DNA of 28,133 nucleotides from a bacterium (lineage in GTDB: Bacteria; Verrucomicrobiota; Kiritimatiellia; UBA8416; CAMZLY01): NCBI GenBank assembly GCA_030632465.1, contig DAOVUR010000001.1, positions 1 through 28,133 on the forward strand, written 5' to 3'. The translations under genes were made by a program, and so were the position numbers. The notes under the pieces were generated by a model. The model searched no databases and was not told the DNA's origin. It was given only the letters and a program-made list of their open reading frames with translations. Numbering within the stretch: the stretch's first letter is position 1; each line of letters opens with the position of its first letter. Below, one piece after another: positions 6,592 to 28,133 of this stretch.

Positions 6592-6618
6592 TAGTCGAGA
6601 TATCGATAAAACTAATAC

Positions 6619-6649
6619 CCCCAACGAGCTAGCCCCGTTGGAACGAAAG
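6619..6649 (+). other. 31-nt 3'-UTR structured motif CCCCAA-N13-TTGGAACGAAAG (copy 2)
   Basis: CCAACG/CGTTGG stem followed by AACGAAAG and a T7 tract. Confidence 0.55.
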
Positions 6650-9031: not shown

Positions 9032-9949
9032 ATGCGTATTCTCGTCACAGGTGCAGCAGGATTTGTTGGTAAACATCTCCTGCAAGAATTAATCAGACAC
9101 AAACATCAAGCAATTGCTGTTGACCTTAAAGCTGGTGAAAAACAAGATAATGTCACTTGGTACGAATGCGACATTCTTAAACCTGATGAAGTTAATGCAA
9201 TAGTAACAGAAACAAAACCTGATGCCTGCATACATCTCGCAGGCATTGCTTTTGTCCCCTCCGCAGATACTCACCCAGAAACAATGCTCTGCATCAACAT
9301 CCTCGGCACACTAAACATCCTCAATGCGCTCAGCAAAACGTCTCCATCATGCAAAACACTTGTAATCTCCACTGGACACGTTTACGGCACACCTAGCGAA
9401 GATAAGTTAGTAACCGAAGATATGCCACTACATCCCGTAACACTATACGCAATCACCAAAGCCGCCTCCGATTCAGCAGCCCTAGGATTCACCGAAAATA
9501 ACCGACTGCCAGTCATGACAGCACGCCCCAACAACCATTCCGGTCCCGGGCAGTCACCCAACTTTGTCATCCCCGGCTTTGTTAATCAGGCAAAAGCAAT
9601 TGCCGCCGGAACATCAGAACCACTACTACGTGTTGGTAACCTAGAAAGCATCCGCGACTTCACCGATGTACGAGACGTCGTTCGAGCCTACCGTCTACTC
9701 ATAGAAAAAGGGATACCGGGACACGCATACAACATTGCATCATGCGACACCGTATCCATTGGCGACATGCTTAACGAAATATGTCAACTAACAGACATCG
9801 ATCCAACAATAGAAGTAGATCCGAATAAGTTCAGACCAAAAGATCACTCACCAGTACTAGATACAAGCAAACTAAAACAACATACCGGCTGGCAACCAGA
9901 ATATACACGCATCCAAACCCTCACCGATATGATTGAAAGCAGTGAATAA
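9032..9949 (+). CDS. NAD-dependent epimerase/reductase, Rmd-like (GDP-4-keto-6-deoxy-D-mannose reductase)
   Basis: GAAGFVG, YAITK catalytic motif, LRVGNLESIRDFTDVRDVVRAY; directly follows gmd. Confidence 0.75.
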   Translation: MRILVTGAAGFVGKHLLQELIRHKHQAIAVDLKAGEKQDNVTWYECDILKPDEVNAIVTETKPDACIHLAGIAFVPSADTHPETMLCINILGTLNILNALSKTSPSCKTLVISTGHVYGTPSEDKLVTEDMPLHPVTLYAITKAASDSAALGFTENNRLPVMTARPNNHSGPGQSPNFVIPGFVNQAKAIAAGTSEPLLRVGNLESIRDFTDVRDVVRAYRLLIEKGIPGHAYNIASCDTVSIGDMLNEICQLTDIDPTIEVDPNKFRPKDHSPVLDTSKLKQHTGWQPEYTRIQTLTDMIESSE

Positions 9950-9975
9950 CTAATAGTGAACAGTGAATAGTTAAA
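9941..9975 (+). repeat. Heptamer array overlapping the stop codon
   Basis: AGTGAAT AACTAAT AGTGAAC AGTGAAT AGTTAAA; stop TAA at 9947-9949. Confidence 0.8.
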
Positions 9976-10019
9976 AGAAGAAGGTAATATGACACCTACG
10001 GGGTCTTGAAAATTATCAT

Positions 10020-11024
10020 ATGAAGAAAAAAGTCTTCACAATCATACAGATCACCATCGCAATACTCATTCTTGCCGTAATTTTTTTCAAACTACAACAA
10101 AGCGGGCAGCTTACGCAACTACTTGATGCTATCAACAGAGCCATCGGCAACTGGCCCTACCTAATCATCACATTCATCGGACTTTTTCTATCGGCATTTT
10201 TCTGTACAGTCCGCTGGGGTTGCCTACTTAAAGCCCAAGATGTACATATAAAATTCAGCCGCCAGTTCACTCTTTATCTTATCGGACAATTCTTTAGCGC
10301 ATTCATGCTAGGCTCAACAGGTGGCGATGTCATCAAAGCATATTATGTCTCGACAGAAACCAAACATAAACGTGCCGAAGTTGTCGCTACAGTTATTGTC
10401 GATCGTATCATCGGACTCATAGCACTGGTAATACTACTAGCCATACTCACGGTCGTACGAATAAATTTCTTCCTCTCCAGCCCAGAAACAAAAATAGCTA
10501 TATGGTTTAATATGAGCCTACTCATAGCAGTAACAGTTGGGCTTCTAATAATATTTAAGCGTAACCTACTAGAAAAATGGAGTCTATTCAGGAAATTTGA
10601 AGAATCGACATCCATCGGCAAAGTGATAGGTAAAGTCTACAACGCAATGCACATCTGCTTCAACCAACCAGGGCTCATGCCAAAAGTTCTATTTCTATCA
10701 TTCCTGAATCATATCAGCATGGCCGTCTGGGGCTTCTACATTGCCATGGCGCTAGGAATACCAAATGGCTTTATCGACATACTCACAGTCGTAATACTAA
10801 TCAACACAATAGCATCCATCCCAATAACCCCAAATGGACTAGGTACTAGAGAATCTGCTGCTATCTTCATGATGGGCGCAATAGGTGTTTCCGCAGCCAC
10901 AGCCGTAACCTTCTCACTACTATGCTACGCAGCAATACTGCTAATCAGCCTTATCGGCGGCATCTTCTACATCATCTATACCGCCCAAAAAGGAAAGATC
11001 ACCGTCGAGCAACCTATCCAATAG
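10020..11024 (+). CDS. Lysylphosphatidylglycerol-synthase TM / flippase-like (UPF0104) membrane protein
   Basis: RWGCLL, YLIGQFFS..MLGSTGGDVIK, TVIVDRIIG, IPITPNGLGTRE. Confidence 0.88.
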   Translation: MKKKVFTIIQITIAILILAVIFFKLQQSGQLTQLLDAINRAIGNWPYLIITFIGLFLSAFFCTVRWGCLLKAQDVHIKFSRQFTLYLIGQFFSAFMLGSTGGDVIKAYYVSTETKHKRAEVVATVIVDRIIGLIALVILLAILTVVRINFFLSSPETKIAIWFNMSLLIAVTVGLLIIFKRNLLEKWSLFRKFEESTSIGKVIGKVYNAMHICFNQPGLMPKVLFLSFLNHISMAVWGFYIAMALGIPNGFIDILTVVILINTIASIPITPNGLGTRESAAIFMMGAIGVSAATAVTFSLLCYAAILLISLIGGIFYIIYTAQKGKITVEQPIQ

Positions 11025-11387
11025 ATCCTGTTAATCCTGTCTAAAAGAATCTTTTCCGTCGAGCAGATTCGTTTTTTTCATTCGTGCATTCGTGGCAATC
11101 CCCCTTTACTTTTCAGTAGAGCGGTCCCGTAGCGCAAAAAAAATCATTTTGTCCCTAAATCATTTTGTCGTTTCTTTTAATAGCGCACCGTTTTCACCCT
11201 TTTCCCTTTCCGGAATGCCAGCATGGCGTGCATTTGATTGTCGAGCAAAGCGAGACAAGCAAATAAACGCCATCACCGTAGCGCGACATAACAGATTCGT
11301 GTCATTAGTGCAATTCGCGGCAAAACATCTTTTCAGTAGAGCGGTCCCGTAGAGCAAAAAATCATTTTGTCACATAATCATTTTGTC
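11023..11387 (+). repeat. Mosaic intergenic repeat array with hairpin copy at 11223-11273 and internal direct repeat (~11110-11169 and ~11330-11387)
   Basis: Seven GTAG(A/C)GC-type junctions separating modules of 50, 5, 43, 90, 50 and 5 nt. Confidence 0.9.
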
Positions 11388-12204
11388 TTCCAATAACAAC
11401 TTTTTCATTTCGTTCCCGTAAAATCTCATTATTCTCCCCACACTGCGACAGATCACGATACGGAACAGATTTTGCAGACTCAGTAATAGCCAACATCTCA
11501 TCATCGCTATATGGATACTTAATCATATTCTCACTCTTCGCCGCAACAGTCCCAATCCTCTGCTCGCCAACCTGTTCCGACTTACCAATAAAAAAACCAG
11601 CCTCCAGAAAACCAACAAGCACTGGTAAAGCTGTCGAATAGGTCAAGAGCACACCATCAGTCTTCAACAACAGATAGAGCTTCTTAAAGAAATCAACCGT
11701 CCATAACTGCGCATTACGTTGAGTAGAAAATGGGTCATGATAAATCAAGTCATACTGCCGGTGATCAGCAATCAGCTCAGAACAACTCAGCCTAGCATCA
11801 CCCCAAATCATCTCTATATTCAGATAATCACTTGAGTATAATGAGCGTTTGTAGAGCTCAGACAGAATCACTTGCCATTTAGAGTCAATAGATTGCGAAG
11901 CATCACCAACAACCGCCTTATCGATTTCCAGTGCAGTCACACTAATACTACCGCGCCATTTAGCAGCTTCCTCCGCCGCTAAGAGCGTATTGTACCCGAG
12001 CCCAAAACATACATCCAGAACAGAGACAGCAGCATTCGCTAACCGCCTCTCCAGCTCTGACGGAACAATATACTTCGCCAAAGCCTCCTCACGCGCGCCC
12101 TCAAGCGAATGATAATGCTCCTTAAAATCAGAATTAAAAAAGGTGACAGATCCATCACCAGTAATCTTACTTTTCACGTCATCCCTCACCCTTTGCATGT
12201 CCAT
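11362..12204 (-). CDS. Stand-alone MnmC/MnmD-like SAM-dependent tRNA methyltransferase
   Basis: TGDGSVTF...EHYHS..GAREEA..KY, VLDVCFGLGYN, WGDAR, IYHDPFS...LWT; start probably MDMQ at 12204, 4 nt after the upstream stop. Confidence 0.8.
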   Translation of the reverse strand: MDMQRVRDDVKSKITGDGSVTFFNSDFKEHYHSLEGAREEALAKYIVPSELERRLANAAVSVLDVCFGLGYNTLLAAEEAAKWRGSISVTALEIDKAVVGDASQSIDSKWQVILSELYKRSLYSSDYLNIEMIWGDARLSCSELIADHRQYDLIYHDPFSTQRNAQLWTVDFFKKLYLLLKTDGVLLTYSTALPVLVGFLEAGFFIGKSEQVGEQRIGTVAAKSENMIKYPYSDDEMLAITESAKSVPYRDLSQCGENNEILRERNEKVVIGRQNDYVTK

Positions 12205-13417: not shown

Positions 13418-13515
13418 CGGCATTTCGGCTCCGCTCAATGACCTTCTTACTTCTAACATCCCGACACGAGGTCCCTGAGCGGAGCCGAAGGCGTTGCCCT
13501 GAGCGGAGCCGAAGG
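13418..13515. repeat. REP-like TGAGCGGAGCCGAA cluster (one inverted and two direct copies)
   Basis: CCCTGAGCGGAGCCGAAGG at 13473-13491 and 13497-13515; the inverted 26-mer at 13418-13443 is identical to 17065-17090. Confidence 0.85.
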
Positions 13516-14965: not shown

Positions 14966-15049
14966 AACTATTTACATCTCCATATCTTCACTTACCGCAA
15001 TACTCAACTTTACAACCTAAGTTGTCAAATACTTAACCATTAAACAGGC

Positions 15050-15267
15050 AGTGAATAGTGAATAGTTATTGATTTCCTTCCTTTTTTAATAGTTAGTCAT
15101 CGCTCCTTTTAATAGCGCACCGTTTTCATCCGTTACCCTTTTCTGAATGCTTGCATGGCGTGCATTTGATTGTCGAGCAAAGCGAGACAAGCAGATAAAC
15201 GCCATCACCGTAGCGCAGATTCGTGTAATTCGTGCAATTCGTGGCAAAACATCTTTTCAGTAGAGCA
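15050..15267 (+). repeat. Mosaic intergenic repeat array with hairpin copy at 15155-15205
   Basis: 15050-15100 is near-identical to 22056-22105; junctions at 15112, 15210 and 15260. Confidence 0.88.
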
Positions 15268-15298
15268 GCATCCCCACTTGTACTTTTCTATTTTCTCA

Positions 15299-17061: not shown

Positions 17062-17094
17062 TTACGGCATTTCGGCTCCGCTCAATGACCGTAA
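17062..17094. repeat. REP-like unit between nagB and the kinase gene
   Basis: TTACGG-CAT-TTCGGCTCCGCTCA-ATG-A-CCGTAA hairpin; its 26-mer core is identical to 13418-13443. Confidence 0.8.
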
Positions 17095-17126: not shown

Positions 17127-18227
17127 ATGAAACACGACTTAGCAGCAGTTGCACAAAACTTCGATATGCGTGCCGACTTTATCAGCGCAGAACCATACGG
17201 TAGCGGACATATCAACGACACATACGCCGCAACCTACAGCCAGGCAGGCACAAAAGTACGCTATATCCACCAGCGCATCAACCATCTAATATTTAAAGAA
17301 CCACTCTTATTGATGGAAAACATTGAACGAGTCACATCACACATCAAAAACAGACTTATCGCTAACGGCATGGACGATATCAATCGTCGCACATTAACCT
17401 TAGTACCTACACTAAATGGCAAGTCATGCTACATAGATCCTGACGGCAACTACTGGCGTACATATCTATTTGTCGAGAATGCAAAGACATACGACGAGAT
17501 CACTAGTACTAATCAAGCATTTCAGGCAGCAAAGGCATTTGGTGAGTTCCAAAAACAGCTTGCCGACCTTCCTGGCCCACGCCTACATGATACTATCCCC
17601 GGCTTCCATAACACACGGCAACGCTTCGACAACTTAACAAAAGCAATAGAGGCAGATAGTCACAATAGAGCCGCATCTGTAAAAGCCGATATCGAATTTG
17701 CCATGCAACGTGAAGCTATGGTTGACATCCTATTAGACCTACAAGCTAAAGGCGAGATCCCTGAGATCATCACCCATAGCGATACGAAACTAAACAACGT
17801 TATGCTAGACGATAAGACATCTAAAGGTATCTGCGTAATTGACCTCGACACCGTAATGCCTGGACTATCACTATACGATTTTGGCGATATGGCTCGCACC
17901 GCAATGCGTCCGACAGCAGAGGATGAAGTAGATCTATCCAAGGTCGTAGCACAGCTAGACATGTTCAAAGCTCTTGCAGAGGGTTATCTGTCATCTGCTG
18001 GTGACATGTTAACCCAAGCAGAAAAAGATCACCTCGCCTTCTCAACACAGCTAATAACATTCGAAATCGGACTACGCTTCCTGACAGATCATCTAGAGGG
18101 TGACACATACTTCAAGACACATCGCGATGGACACAACCTGGACCGCGCCCGCGTGCAGTTCAAAATGGTAGAGTCACTAGAAAGTATCGACGATGATATG
18201 AACACCATTGTTGCAGAACTTAATTAG
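17127..18227 (+). CDS. Aminoglycoside-phosphotransferase-fold sugar kinase, N-acetylhexosamine kinase (NahK)-like
   Basis: YGSGHINDTY, HQRINH.IF, HSDTKLNNVML, VIDLDTVMPG, YDFGD, RFLTDHLEGDTYFK; start moved to MKHDL. Confidence 0.85.
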   Translation: MKHDLAAVAQNFDMRADFISAEPYGSGHINDTYAATYSQAGTKVRYIHQRINHLIFKEPLLLMENIERVTSHIKNRLIANGMDDINRRTLTLVPTLNGKSCYIDPDGNYWRTYLFVENAKTYDEITSTNQAFQAAKAFGEFQKQLADLPGPRLHDTIPGFHNTRQRFDNLTKAIEADSHNRAASVKADIEFAMQREAMVDILLDLQAKGEIPEIITHSDTKLNNVMLDDKTSKGICVIDLDTVMPGLSLYDFGDMARTAMRPTAEDEVDLSKVVAQLDMFKALAEGYLSSAGDMLTQAEKDHLAFSTQLITFEIGLRFLTDHLEGDTYFKTHRDGHNLDRARVQFKMVESLESIDDDMNTIVAELN

Positions 18228-18538
18228 TGAATAGTGCAGTTTTCCACCGCAGACCGTAGTACCGTGGACCATTTTTTAAAAATGCCTGCATGGCGTGCAT
18301 TTGATTATTGAGCAAAGCGAAATAAGCAAATAAACGCCATCACCGCCGAGCAGCATATTTTAATCTGTGTTTATCTGTGTTAATCTGTGGTTAACAATCT
18401 TTCAAAGCACACCGCACCGCCGCCACGCCTTAAATCCTGTTCATCCTGTACATCCATGTCAAAACCCATAGCGCACCGTAAAGACGAGAAGCCCGAAGGC
18501 ACAACCACTATTCACTATTCATTATTCACTGTTAGCTG
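18226..18538. repeat. Mosaic intergenic array: hairpin copy 18290-18340, ATCTGTG and ATCCTGT repeats, heptamer arrays at both gene ends
   Basis: Direct sequence match to the other loci; minus-strand heptamers at 18504-18538 start at the acyltransferase stop. Confidence 0.85.
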
Positions 18539-19488
18539 CTTTTTCTCTCCGGCGGCTCAATAGGTCTAGCGTATGTAGGATATCCCTCTTCCGCACATCC
18601 TGCAGGAATAAATTTCCAGCGCTTATAAGCCCACATCCATTTGCTAGGATTCTCACGAATAGCATCCTCTATAAGCTTAACAACTGCCTGCGTAATAACC
18701 TCCTGCGTATTCTCGCCAACAAACCCCTCTGGTAGTGGACGAGCAAAGACCTTGTAATGTCCACGTTTATCAGCAATACAGTACAGGAGAGCAACCTGAA
18801 CATCACCCTTTGTAGCAAGTGCAGCGACTGCTCTACTCACAGGAACTGGTAAGCCAAACATATCAACAAATATACCACCATCTGCAGGAACAACATTCTG
18901 ATCAATAAGCAATGCAACAACCGTATCACCCTTAAGCGCCTTCATCAACTGCCTGATAGCACCATCTTGATACACAACCTGCTGACCTGTAATCTGGCGC
19001 GAACGAGAAACCATACGATTAATAACCGGGTTCCTCAACTCTGCAGCAACACTTAATAAGCCATCCAGATATAGCGCGCCAGCCTGACCTAAAATCTCCC
19101 AATTCCCAAAATGTGCTGCAACAGCTACTCCACGCTTACGTGACGCATACAGCTCAGCACTTTCATCAAGCTTGATATATTTCCTTAACCGTCGCTCCGT
19201 CTGCACACTAAACCAAAAAACATCTAATGCGGTCAAAAGCATTGTCTGAAAAGACTCAACAGCTATCTGCTCCACCTCTGACTCACTTAACTTATGCTCC
19301 TTGTTAAATACCGTCAGAAGATTAGCCATCGCAACATAGCGCTGTCTTTTACTAAGTGCGAAAGCAAGACGCCCCAATAGACGAGAAAGCAGGATAAGTA
19401 GAAAACGTGGTATCCAAGGGATAATCAGAAAGGCCAAGAAGGCTGGCACTGACTCAGCAAATACTTTAATTTTACTTCTTTGCTTCAT
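18532..19488 (-). CDS. Lipid A biosynthesis acyltransferase (LpxL/HtrB family)
   Basis: AAHFGNWE (HxxxxE), LLIDQ, FGLPV, ENPSKWMWAYKRWK. Confidence 0.88.
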   Translation of the reverse strand: MKQRSKIKVFAESVPAFLAFLIIPWIPRFLLILLSRLLGRLAFALSKRQRYVAMANLLTVFNKEHKLSESEVEQIAVESFQTMLLTALDVFWFSVQTERRLRKYIKLDESAELYASRKRGVAVAAHFGNWEILGQAGALYLDGLLSVAAELRNPVINRMVSRSRQITGQQVVYQDGAIRQLMKALKGDTVVALLIDQNVVPADGGIFVDMFGLPVPVSRAVAALATKGDVQVALLYCIADKRGHYKVFARPLPEGFVGENTQEVITQAVVKLIEDAIRENPSKWMWAYKRWKFIPAGCAEEGYPTYARPIEPPERKSS

Positions 19489-20420: not shown

Positions 20421-20691
20421 TTTTCACCCTTCACCATTTTCAAATCACCCTTTTTCCTTTTTAAATAGCGCACCATGAAAATAGTCCACAGTTATCAGTA
20501 AAAAACTTTTCACAACCGTTCGTTTCACTCACTTGAGTTAGGGAGACAAACCGAGCAAAAACAATACTATTATTTCCCCTAGTCATACAAACTTCCCCTT
20601 CTCAGCCGCAGGCCCTCTAGCGTAGCGATTGTAAAATCTTTTCATAGCGCATTTTTTACTTTTCCCTTTACCCTTCAGTCTTCATCGTTCA
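20421..20691. repeat. Degenerate mosaic repeats between xerD and rnc
   Basis: TTTTCACC modules, ATAGCGCA junctions at 20465 and 20644, and minus-strand heptamers (TGAACGA TGAAGAC TGAAGGG TAAAGGG) after the xerD stop. Confidence 0.55.
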
Positions 20692-21980: not shown

Positions 21981-22041
21981 GGCAAAAGATTAGCAAAAAC
22001 CAACAATAGAAGTACAGCGAAAAGATAATGAACTAAAAAAC

Positions 22042-22650
22042 AGTGAACAACTAATAGTGAATAGTGAATAGTTATTGATTTCCTGCTTTTTTAATAGTTA
22101 GTCATTATCTTATTTCATCCCGCACCGTTTTTCCCTATTTACCCTTTCCAGAATGCCTGCATGGCGTGCATTTGATTGTCGAGCCTTCGAGACAAGCAAA
22201 TAAACGCCATCACTGTAGATCCGCCTTCTCCCGCAACTGCGCGGATACGGCGCGACATGGCAGATTCGTGTAATTCGTGTCATTCGTGGTAAAATATCTT
22301 TTCAGTAGCGCACCACCGTAGAGCAATAAATGATTCTGTCGACAATGATTCTGCCGTGCCTTTTAATAGCGCACCGTTTCCACCCTTTCCCCTCTCCTGA
22401 ATGCCTGCATGGCGTGCATTTGATTGTCGAGCCTTCGAGACAAGCAAATAAACGCCATCACTGTAGAGCAGATTCGTGTAATTCGTGTCATTCGTGGTAA
22501 AACATCTTTTCAGTATAGCACCACCGTAGAGCAGTACATGATTCTGTCGACAATGATTCTGCCGTGCCTTTTAATAGCGCACCGTTTCGCGCCCTTCGCG
22601 TATTTCGTAGTAATCCCTGCATAGCGCCGTTTTCACCATTTTCACACTTG
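22042..22650 (+). repeat. Mosaic intergenic array with tandem duplication; hairpin copies at 22161-22210 and 22409-22458
   Basis: 22151-22380 and 22399-22588 are near-identical apart from a 40-nt insert; 248-bp period. Confidence 0.92.
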
Positions 22651-22676
22651 CGACCACGTCATACCCTTGTTACAGT
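22648..22676 (+). promoter_or_regulatory. Putative ilvD promoter
   Basis: TTGCGA-N17-TACAGT with a TG-n extended -10. Confidence 0.45.
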
Positions 22677-22714
22677 GTATCCAATATTCTAAATCAACAA
22701 AAAGGAATCAGCCA

Positions 22715-25636: not shown

Positions 25637-25652
25637 TGAACAACTAATGATG

Positions 25653-25849
25653 CTCCTCGGGGCAAGCCCCGAAGGTATCTATTTACTGTAGGGCTGGAAC
25701 GGCCCGCCTGCATCGCTTTGCGAAGCAATGCGGGCAGGTTGAGCTTGCGAAACCTTCCCGCCGGGCCTGGCTGGAAGGCATCGTACCTCAGCCGTTCCAG
25801 CCCTACAATTCATAACGCAGCAAGCTGCGGGGTATTAACCCCTCGGCTT
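25653..25849. mobile_element. Palindromic MITE/REPIN-like element, copy 1 (197 bp) with nested 36-bp insert at 25703-25738
   Basis: 16-bp perfect inverted repeat TGTAGGGCTGGAACGG at 25687-25702/25792-25807; near-identical to 27914-28074. Mobility is inferred. Confidence 0.75.
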
Positions 25850-25858
25850 CGCATAAAT

Positions 25859-26169
25859 AATGAATAGTGAATAGTTGTTGCAGCAGCAGGCGGGTCATAA
25901 TCATAATCATAATCCTAATCAAAACTGAATAGAGATCTTGCATCAACAGCCCAATCGCTATCTACACTTCGATATTGCATAAGATCAGACAGCAGAACAT
26001 AAAGAACTAAATCAATCGATTACGAGCACGAGTACTACCTGCCCGCAGTATCTGCGACACGGTCGCAGCAGGCGGGTTAGGACTAGGATACTACATCCTC
26101 GTATTCATAATAATTGTCATTAAAGTGACAATGCAATCACTATTCATTATTAGTTTTTCGTTATTCACT
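25859..26169. repeat. Nested inward-facing heptamer and hexamer arrays
   Basis: Heptamers on + at 25859-25879 and on - at 26135-26169; hexamers TCATAA x4 at 25895-25920 and GATTAC/GAGCAC/GAGTAC at 26018-26035. Confidence 0.65.
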
Positions 26170-26645: not shown

Positions 26646-27911
26646 ATGATAAATTCAGCAATTTCATTTAATCCACCACGCGGCATGCGCGACTTCTACC
26701 CTGAAGATATGCTGTTACGTAACCTCATATTTGATGCATGGCGAACTGCTGCGAAAAACTACGGTTTCTCACAATACGACGCTTGCGTAGTGGAGTCCTT
26801 AGAATTACTAAAACGTAAGGCCGGCGAAGAGATCACCGACCAGATATATGCGTTCAAAGATAAAAGCAATCGCGACCTTGCTCTCCGCCCAGAGATGACT
26901 CCCACTCTAGCCCGTATGATCGCAGCTAAACAGGGCTCACTAACATTTCCTGTCAAATGGTTCACTATTGCGCAATGTTTCCGCTACGAACGAACAACCC
27001 GCGGTCGCAAAAGAGAACATTATCAACTTAACCTTGATATCGTAGGAGAACCATCAATCCTCGCCGAAGTAGAAATCATTGCAACAGCAATAAAGTCTAT
27101 GGAAGCAATGGGGCTAGAAAAAAGTGATATTATTATAGATTTCAGTAGCCGTGCACTACTTTCCGATATCCTTATCAACCTCGGCATTGCAGAGCCGGAA
27201 CATGCAGCAGCATTTGTTGCGCTAGATAAACGTGGCAAGATCACTGATGATGCCATCAGGATAATTTTATCCGAGCATGGACTAACAGATGATACTACAG
27301 ACAAAATCTTCAGCGCACTAGAGATCAAATCGCTTTCCGATGTCGAAAAATTAGTTCCAAAAGAGACAGAATCACTCAAAGAGCTACTCAATTTCATCGA
27401 CCTTCTTAAGGCATACGACATCGACAGCTGCATGAACTTCAACATCTCCGTCATTCGTGGCCTAGCATACTACACAGGTATTGTATTTGAAGCATTTGAT
27501 GCTGACCGCACACTTCGCGCAATCTTTGGTGGTGGGCGTTATGATAATCTACTCTCGTCAATTGGCGGCAAACCAGCCACAGCAGTTGGTCTCGGATTTG
27601 GTGATGTAGTTATTGGTGAACTCCTTAACATGAAACAGAATATAACTATTCCAAAAAGCCAAGGTGGCACAGCTGTTGGGTATATGCAACAAGAACAGCA
27701 GAATACAGCAATTCAAGCCGCAAACAAGCTACGAGCCGATGGTGTCAACACCGACCTTGCTCTCACCGCCGAGAAAGCAAAGAAATTCTTCTCACGATGC
27801 AATAAAGCTGGCTTTGAAGAGGCCGTATATATCGGCCCTGATGATGTTGACTCAAACGAAATACGCATCAAAAACCTGAGCACCCGTGAAGAACGAATAT
27901 ATAGTGAATAA
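26646..27911 (+). CDS. hisS: Histidine--tRNA ligase
   Basis: PPRGMRDF, LALRPEMTP, FRYERTTRGRKREHYQ, RGLAYYTGIVFE, GGGRYDNL, AVGLGFG, and an anticodon-binding domain. Confidence 0.96.
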   Translation: MINSAISFNPPRGMRDFYPEDMLLRNLIFDAWRTAAKNYGFSQYDACVVESLELLKRKAGEEITDQIYAFKDKSNRDLALRPEMTPTLARMIAAKQGSLTFPVKWFTIAQCFRYERTTRGRKREHYQLNLDIVGEPSILAEVEIIATAIKSMEAMGLEKSDIIIDFSSRALLSDILINLGIAEPEHAAAFVALDKRGKITDDAIRIILSEHGLTDDTTDKIFSALEIKSLSDVEKLVPKETESLKELLNFIDLLKAYDIDSCMNFNISVIRGLAYYTGIVFEAFDADRTLRAIFGGGRYDNLLSSIGGKPATAVGLGFGDVVIGELLNMKQNITIPKSQGGTAVGYMQQEQQNTAIQAANKLRADGVNTDLALTAEKAKKFFSRCNKAGFEEAVYIGPDDVDSNEIRIKNLSTREERIYSE

Positions 27912-27913
27912 TA

Positions 27914-28074
27914 CTCCTCGGGGCGAGCCCCGAAGGTATCTATTTACTGTAGGGCTGGAACGGTTGAGCTTGCGAAACCTTCCCGCCGGACCTGGCTGGA
28001 AGGCATCGTACCTCAGCCGTTCCAGCCCTACAATTCATGACGCCGCAAGCTGCGGGGTATTAAACCCTCAGCTT
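27914..28074. mobile_element. Palindromic MITE/REPIN-like element, copy 2 (161 bp, no insert)
   Basis: Inverted repeat at 27948-27963/28017-28032; matches 25653-25849. Confidence 0.75.
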
Positions 28075-28080
28075 CCCAAT

Positions 28081-28108
28081 AACTAATAGTGAATAATGAA
28101 TAGTTGAG
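28081..28108 (+). repeat. Heptamer array
   Basis: AACTAAT AGTGAAT AATGAAT AGTTGAG; follows the element as at 25859. Confidence 0.7.
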
Positions 28109-28133
28109 GAACCAGCAAAACAATTGTCATTAA

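Follow-up and report, generated by a model that had tools for sequence, protein, structure and literature searches.

Mosaic intergenic repeats have been known in bacteria for decades, among them the bacterial interspersed mosaic elements (BIMEs), the Neisseria intergenic mosaic elements (NIMEs) and BOX, and the mechanism of their assembly is unsettled. NIME units are bounded by the 20-bp dRS3 sequence, a phage or transposase target with inverted repeats at its ends, while the short tandemly repeated repetitive (STRR) sequences of cyanobacteria are simple tandem runs of heptamer repeats in intergenic spacers. Repetitive extragenic palindromes (REPs), from which BIMEs are built, are defined by a GTAG or GTGG tetranucleotide 0-2 nt 5′ of a stem-loop with a basal stem of 7-20 bp (PMC6006769). 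A REPtron has one or more members of the family within about 1 kb of the tnpA_REP gene, and this gene typically has its REPs on either side. A bias with respect to the replication strand has been documented for IS200/IS605, IS91, IS607 and IS110 (PMC3971601, PMC6006769). Here we describe arrays of short modules, punctuated by the octamer RTAGMGCR, in the intergenic DNA of a bacterium of the Kiritimatiellia (assembly GCA_030632465.1), starting from a stretch of 28,133 nucleotides (contig DAOVUR010000001.1) that we call the window. These arrays form a genuine mosaic repeat family, specific to this lineage and of the BIME/NIME/BOX kind (PMC3049150, PMC3733652, PMC6006769). A first, sequence-only reading of the window had recognised no described family in them, and our literature and database searches likewise gave no description of this one.

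The window is the largest of 295 contigs in a metagenome-assembled genome (MAG) of 1.97 Mb (74% complete, 42.5% G+C). The proteins that its HisS resembles are mostly Verrucomicrobiota/PVC ones (PVC, Planctomycetes-Verrucomicrobia-Chlamydiae). The only other species of the genus, referred to below as the sister species, is represented by an assembly that is 88% complete, and both MAGs are fragmented. The division into intergenic and coding DNA used here is based on crude gene calls from open reading frames (ORFs). The source DNA is present in cold-seep metagenome runs, and Logan contigs from four such runs confirmed both the locus at 11 kb of the window and the high copy number of its repeats; these contigs end at the repeats, and allelic empty and filled sites of the arrays were not recovered from the four runs. 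An independent k=31 assembly from the same samples covered both sides of the 11-kb array, with its sole break inside the repeated hairpin. Short-read assemblies of this lineage are interrupted by the repeats, a point of importance for the recovery of MAGs.

The GC skew of the contigs is about ±0.17-0.29 (mean absolute contig skew 0.17), genes on either strand of the window have a GC skew at third codon positions (GC3 skew) of -0.44 and -0.53, and the G-rich strand carries 67% of coding bases. This last figure identifies the G-rich strand as the leading strand, and together the three indicate a replication skew of unusual strength; with a GC3 skew of about 0.5, the host genome is among the most strongly skewed that we have seen.

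Junctions and modules

The array at 11023-11390 sits between two convergent genes and is composed as follows.

11023-11065, + strand: D-type module (ATCCTGT units) beginning at the upstream gene's stop codon, then the degenerate junction GTCGAGCA (11058-11065)
11066-11115, + strand: B module (ATTCGTG units), including a 19-nt core that is identical in the sister species
11116-11136, + strand: dyad junction, GTAGAGCG, 5 nt, GTAGCGCA
11137-11179, + strand: C module, two AATCATTTTGTC units, unstructured as single-stranded DNA (ssDNA)
11180-11187, + strand: junction octamer ATAGCGCA
11188-11277, + strand: H (C/T-rich) segment and hairpin module A (stem-loop at about 11223-11273)
11278-11285, + strand: junction octamer GTAGCGCG
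11286-11335, + strand: second copy of the B module
11336-11356, + strand: dyad junction, GTAGAGCG, 5 nt, GTAGAGCA
11357-11390, + strand: second copy of the C module, which enters the 3′ end of the convergent gene

The sequence-only reading had parsed the intergenic DNA into modules separated by this one octamer, and the exact junctions it placed at 11 kb (11116, 11129, 11180, 11278, 11336 and 11349), at 22 kb (22305, 22318, 22366, 22463, 22526 and 22574) and at 15 kb (15112, 15210 and 15260) are all present, with spacers of the lengths it gave (50, 5, 43, 90, 50 and 5 nt at 11 kb, and so on). Degenerate copies occur at 11058, 22513 and 22621. The window contains 31 matches to RTAGMGCR, compared to 7.3 ± 2.5 in dinucleotide shuffles, none of which (0/100) reached 31. 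The + strand carries 26 of the 31; the five on the minus strand comprise four in coding DNA and one in a tRNA gene. The intergenic enrichment that had been predicted was also seen in the count over the whole MAG, with 258 intergenic octamers vs. about 65 expected from an order-3 Markov model (about 4-fold) and a density of 1.07/kb in intergenic vs. 0.28/kb in coding DNA.

The octamer is the core of a longer consensus. Junctions take the forms cTTTTCA-GTAGAGCR and cTTTTAA-TAGCGCACCG, that following the hairpin reads CACC-GTAGMGCR, and the full dyad junction is ATAGCGCAC(C/A)GCACC-GTAGAGCA. In some subfamilies, the degenerate sequences GCCGAGCA and GTCGAGCA replace the octamer. The dyad GTAGNGCR-N5-GTAGNGCR (11116-11136 and 22305-22325 in the window; also contigs C19 and C95) shares its layout with the D-arm of tRNAs, and real tRNA genes match the pattern. 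An origin of the junction from a tRNA D-arm was nevertheless dropped, as Rfam gives the arrays no tRNA-like score. Three other candidates were discarded: a dif/Xer-like site, where the resemblance is limited to 7 nt (GGTGCGC) with no XerD arm; CsrA-type GGA sites, which are present in one module type only; and DnaA boxes, KOPS or Chi, since the octamer has no polarity in coding DNA.

The reading of the arrays as mosaics with breakpoints at the octamer had been staked in advance on whether module boundaries coincide with it once many copies are aligned. They do: the ends of self-BLAST alignments cluster at both edges of the octamer. In an all-against-all comparison, octamer offset 0 had fifty 5′ ends, and each position from +6 to +12 had 25-81 3′ ends, vs. 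about 5-15 elsewhere. The junction thus marks breaks in similarity. An exact octamer adjoins 28-75% of the ends of B, C and G modules, compared to about 1% of random intergenic windows, and is therefore a frequent rather than a universal punctuation mark.

We read 51 clusters of at least two intergenic octamers, including a few tRNA genes with a match to the pattern. Within the genuine arrays, at least 10 kinds of module body are bordered by the octamer. They measure 40-90 nt each and are strung head to tail, and most are made of 2-3 tandem copies of a 7-12-nt unit. The direct-repeat modules are B (ATTCGTG), C (AATCATTYTGTC), D (ATCCTGT), E (CTTCATG), F (TTCATCG), J (ATCTGTG) and K; the hairpin modules are A (about 50 nt) and the small hairpins G, P and R. 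In one array the octamer flanks a complete REPIN of another family. The recurring order described earlier, from the hairpin to the ATTCGTG module and through the linker to the AATCATTYTGTC module, was confirmed (in 8 of 13 cases, the module after A is B), but other successions occur too: B precedes C five times and D five times, and F is mostly last. The order of the modules is therefore constrained without being fixed. Many C modules carry a small hairpin (CCTCCGTAGC...GCGAAGGATGG) exactly between their two units (contigs C1, C52, C67, C70, C255 and C292, and C190 of the sister species), which looks like the insertion of one module type into another.

Hairpin A has a predicted free energy of -15.5 kcal/mol and a z-score of -5.3 in the 11-kb copy, with a basal stem of 7 bp and the GTAG 4 nt 3′ of the stem. 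All of its variants fold, within and between species (z -4.3 to -9.1). One subfamily in this genome differs by two compensatory pairs (TTGTC/GACAA to TTATT/AATAA), there is a copy with a G-T intermediate, and the GA-rich apical motif is conserved. The B and C modules are unfolded (z +1.35 and -1.37, respectively). The modules and arrays read have no terminal inverted repeats, setting them apart from MITEs, which are defined by such repeats together with a target-site duplication, and solitary modules are bounded by direct copies of the junction of about 15 nt. Nor are they CRISPR arrays, which have unique spacers between identical repeats and come with cas genes or a leader, as the would-be spacers here recur at many loci and are internally repetitive. 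An Rfam search of the window at the gathering score returned one tRNA only, with no known RNA family in the arrays.

Replication-strand polarity and turnover between species

The polarity of the arrays with respect to replication is a new result of this follow-up. Over the whole MAG, intergenic octamers were found 206 times on the C-rich (lagging) strand vs. 40 times on the G-rich strand, while those in coding DNA were unbiased (220 vs. 224). Counted by locus the split was 112:24, with several of the exceptions being tRNA D-arms that match by chance. Strict markers of the arrays gave 231 on the C-rich vs. 10 on the G-rich strand (about 96%), or 61:2 by contig (p = 4e-16), and individual components were as polar or more so (19:0 for hairpin A, 18:0 for module B and 63:2 for ATAGCGCACMG, C-rich vs. 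G-rich, respectively). Among 60 loci with at least two intergenic octamers, some of which are tRNA genes, 55 had them on a single strand and 5 were mixed. The same strand rule was followed by 9 of 10 junction matches in the sister species. Other repeat families of this genome, used as internal controls, were unbiased (18:11 for REP_C264, 28:36 for REP_D and 15:25 for family 17). The possible arrangements of the flanking genes were about evenly represented (34, 29, 23 and 20). The orientation of the arrays is unrelated to that of the neighbouring genes and is set by the replication strand.

The octamer as written thus lies on the C-rich lagging strand, and its complement on the G-rich strand that is the lagging-strand template, single-stranded at the fork. 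Read on the G-rich strand, every junction is CTAC followed by TGAAAAG (YGCKCTAY, then TGAAAAG), and hairpins A and R are preceded by CTAC-GG(N) (CTAC-GGTG for hairpin A), in a tag-then-hairpin layout. Faster mutational decay of wrongly oriented copies was considered and rejected as an explanation of the polarity, because BLAST at E <= 1e-3 would still find such copies, and of the 19 hairpins it detects, none is on the G-rich strand.

Among the collections scanned, the array family was found only in this species and its sister species. The 15-mer junction sequence YTTTTCAGTAGMGCR occurs 21 times in this species, 10 times in the sister species and in none of 62 other genomes of the order; reversed-pattern controls gave 0 matches in both members of the genus and 0-1 elsewhere. 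The 21-nt dyad had a single match in 185,579 species genomes, a chance one inside a high-GC coding region, and a 17-mer matched JGI metagenome contigs at 66 loci, with one match each and none array-like, which we read as chance.

The architecture is the same in the sister species, where GTAGAGCG junctions occur, C and B modules form tandem cycles of 52 nt and the hairpin has two variants. The genes of the two species are syntenic and 73-81% identical, so that array composition could be compared at orthologous loci, as the sequence-only reading had proposed. The sister spacers orthologous to 22024-22682, 18205-18547 and 15048-15283 contain no arrays, and array-bearing and array-free orthologous spacers measured 660 nt vs. 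116 nt and 343 nt vs. 136 nt. One orthologous spacer has arrays in both species, with different modules in each. The arrays have been gained, lost and recomposed on the time-scale of the divergence of the two species. Through this turnover, the 19-mer core of module B has stayed identical between the two species (19 and 17 copies), while nearly every position of the hairpin stem differs between them with the fold being kept.

The window has further arrays or junctions at six places.

57-115, + strand: dyad junction and F module (TTCATCG units), abutting a gene end
1726-2060, + strand: diverged array of junction, Q segment, hairpin A, B and C modules
15112-15267, + strand: array of junction, H segment and hairpin A, junction, B module, junction
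18235-18475, + strand: array of the TTATT/AATAA hairpin subfamily, degenerate junction, J module (three ATCTGTG units), D module and ATAGCGCA
20465-20651, + strand: two solitary ATAGCGCA junctions around other repeated DNA
22105-22628, + strand: the longest array, about 2.5 cycles of A, B, junction and C with a period of 208 nt

In the first of the two tandem cycles at 22 kb, hairpin A and B are separated by about 40 additional nt that include a small ATCCGC...GCGGAT hairpin (22218-22262; also at 1735-1765). Compared to the copy at 11.28 kb, this extra piece falls between GTA and GCGCGACAT, i.e. within the junction.

Other repeats also occupy the spacers of the window. Runs of AGTGAAT-type heptamers adjoin gene ends at 9936-9976, 15047-15071, 22037-22077, 25856-25880 and 28085-28109, with a mild strand bias (35:16), and the sister spacer orthologous to that at 15 kb holds a long (AACCAAT/AACCAGT)n run that breaks the sister assembly. 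Two membrane-protein genes are each followed by a 41-nt repeat (1175-1215 and 6609-6649) that has a covarying stem and a conserved GGAACGAAAG tail and forms a separate small family with about 5 self-BLAST matches. An exact 26-nt repeat (13418-13443 and 17065-17090) belongs to a dispersed family, TTCGGCTCCGCTCAATGAC, with about 40 loci and no strand bias.

Candidate enzymes and rival explanations

We found four Y1_Tnp/RAYT-like ORFs in this genome, all with HUH and Y motifs; three of them are classical REPtrons with REP families of their own. The RAYT gene of contig C272 (3373-3981) has the REP_D family on both sides, that of C264 (170-915) is flanked by GTAG-TGTTGGCTG...CAGCCAA hairpins, and that of C79 (186-1090) by AACAGCT...AGCTGTT hairpins (REP_C79). 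The REP_C79 family is itself strand-polar (23:3), with tag and hairpin on the G-rich strand. The fourth gene (C243) is cut by the contig end. REP_D copies also occur in the window, at 25640-25860 and 27900-28110, as a multi-hairpin element with a 16-bp GTAGGGCTGGAACGG inverted repeat; because the same family flanks the C272 RAYT, we regard this element as a REPtron REP/REPIN that is separate from the octamer arrays. No octamer array lies beside any of the four RAYT-like genes or the two of the sister species (C181 and C175), a result that is not final as the assemblies are 74% and 88% complete. IS110 and TnpB were not found in either assembly, and a reverse transcriptase was seen in the sister species only. 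Y1 HUH genes are present in both, and are the sole class of polar-transposition enzyme seen; the search for IS91 was uninformative, as the control genomes gave no match.

The non-coding and non-autonomous nature of the arrays, proposed from the start, is supported by our data. We put at about even the chance that they are genus-restricted, non-coding, non-autonomous mosaic repeats, probably copied and joined through ssDNA at the replication fork. A single-strand cut-and-join reaction coupled to the fork would copy the modules and link them at the junction, and local tandem duplication would add cycles. A HUH Y1 (IS200/RAYT-like) nuclease is the leading candidate for the enzyme, because no other class of polar-transposition enzyme was seen in either genome. 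Strand bias is a documented signature of ssDNA transposition at the fork, as in IS200/IS605, and also of a small number of further families (PMC3971601), and for this reason we consider fork-coupled joining most likely. The replication-strand polarity favours some single-strand, fork-coupled process, with the strong orientation bias relative to the fork that typifies IS200/IS605 seen in markers and contigs alike. If a HUH enzyme acts, the active strand is probably the complement of the strand first read, because the G-rich strand carries the CTAC/TGAAAAG junctions, the CTAC-GG(N) before hairpins A and R, and the polar REP_C79 family. In that case, the match of GTAG to REPs may be coincidental.

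Several observations weigh against this proposal. No nuclease gene is flanked by arrays in either assembly, and a RAYT ortholog common to the two species was not seen (best cross-species identity 25-33%). Hairpins are found in some modules only (A, G, P and R), and most modules lack the structures that HUH Y1 enzymes normally recognise. We found no pair of empty and filled sites precise enough to fix the insertion point. The 19-mer identical in both species fits a host function equally well. Both MAGs are fragmented, and sequencing depth suggests about 20-40 copies of the hairpin.

The main rival is a host function, in which the modules would be polar chromosomal sites, either direct repeats bound by a protein or strand-specific signals (for replication, segregation, repair or head-on transcription), with their orientation under selection and their spread due to ordinary recombination. 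The identity of the B core and junction between species whose genes have diverged to 73-81%, the roughly helical spacing of the repeat units and an orientation that follows replication rather than genes are all consistent with such sites. Chi and KOPS-type signals, however, show strand bias in coding DNA, where the octamer is unbiased. The diversity of at least 10 unrelated module types and the presence or absence of arrays at orthologous loci also argue against host sites, for which no candidate binding protein is known, and we consider this explanation unlikely.

A new ssDNA mechanism is a doubtful but more radical possibility, in which a linear junction (YGCKCTAY, then TGAAAAG, on the lagging-strand template) would be recognised instead of a hairpin, cassettes of 40-90 nt would be concatenated at the fork, and cassettes such as that containing the 19-mer would be host binding sites. 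If this were true, the arrays would be non-coding mini-cassettes with replication polarity and, rather than a variant of REPs, an element of a categorically new kind.

The sequence-only reading had favoured a canonical REP/BIME system, in which the GTAG of the octamer is the REP guide tetranucleotide and the arrays are mobilised by one of the RAYTs of the genome. There is some basis for this in the four RAYT-like ORFs, in the GTAG REPs known from the PVC group (PMC3733652), and in true REP hairpins that directly adjoin octamers (the R module, and a REP_D REPIN on contig C252). As stated, though, the link to RAYTs is not supported. Three of the RAYTs have flanking REPs of their own and none has octamer arrays. 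The GTAG of hairpin A lies 3′ of the stem with a 4-nt gap, where in REPs it is 0-2 nt 5′. The B and C modules have no stem-loop, most modules being direct repeats without secondary structure. The elements run head to tail and never as inverted pairs, and both species have arrays without a RAYT ortholog in common having been seen. We therefore think it improbable that the arrays are canonical REPs.

Slippage, unequal crossing-over and gene conversion between junctions could in principle build the arrays with no dedicated enzyme, their polarity resulting from copies in the opposite orientation being unstable or harmful on the lagging-strand template. Tandem cycles (with the 208-nt period at 22 kb and 52 nt in the sister species), the homogenisation of units within a module and the slightly lower stability of hairpin A on the G-rich strand (-13.0 vs. 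-15.5 kcal/mol) would all be accounted for. Copies are found, however, at >100 unlinked loci and the occupied loci differ between the two species, so that movement to new sites is required, and unstructured modules are equally polar (18:0 for B). We have little confidence in this explanation.

That the arrays are RNA elements (small RNAs, untranslated-region structures or terminators) is very unlikely: the compensatory changes in the hairpin, including the G-T intermediate, and its conserved GA-rich apical motif would fit, but the orientation is independent of genes, so that half of the transcripts would carry the arrays in sense and half in antisense, Rfam gives no match, and no U-tract follows the hairpin.

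Comparison with known systems

The sharp junction, the mostly non-palindromic modules and the near-complete orientation by replication strand make the question of how mosaic repeats are assembled a testable one. Polarity without hairpins is hard to reconcile with the standard REP/RAYT picture, and points either to fork-coupled single-strand joining with other recognition rules or to host signals that the replication machinery reads one way.

The BIMEs and REP clusters of Enterobacteria and Pseudomonas resemble the arrays in being intergenic, non-coding, high-copy mosaics that are specific to a species or genus, with tandem reiteration, an RTAG tag and RAYT genes in the genome (PMC6006769, PMC3733652). 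The basic unit of a BIME is an inverted pair of palindromic REPs with defined linker motifs, whereas the arrays consist of direct repeats, mostly non-palindromic, set head to tail. They also differ from BIMEs in having their tag 3′ of hairpin A, in flanking no RAYT and in being about 96% polar with respect to the replication strand.

NIMEs of Neisseria are alike in consisting of short, variable units punctuated by one conserved sequence in intergenic mosaics (cited in PMC3049150). The junction of the arrays is an asymmetric direct dyad, unlike the inverted-repeat ends of dRS3. To our knowledge, replication polarity has not been described for NIMEs.

The BOX elements of Streptococcus (boxA-boxB(n)-boxC; PMC3049150) share with the arrays a composite make-up, a preferred order, a variable number of internal modules and variation between strains or species. 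In contrast to the arrays, BOX has terminal inverted repeats, folds as a whole and comprises three module types with no common junction motif, and an IS-like mobilisation has been proposed for it. IS200/IS605 elements and their miniature derivatives need a subterminal hairpin at each end, insert 3′ of a fixed tetra- or pentanucleotide and usually occur as dispersed single copies, while the modules described here are 40-90 nt long, mostly hairpin-free and concatenated. Finally, the cyanobacterial STRR sequences fill intergenic spacers with tandem units of the 7-nt class, much as the arrays do, and differ from them in having no common junction, hairpin module or known replication polarity.

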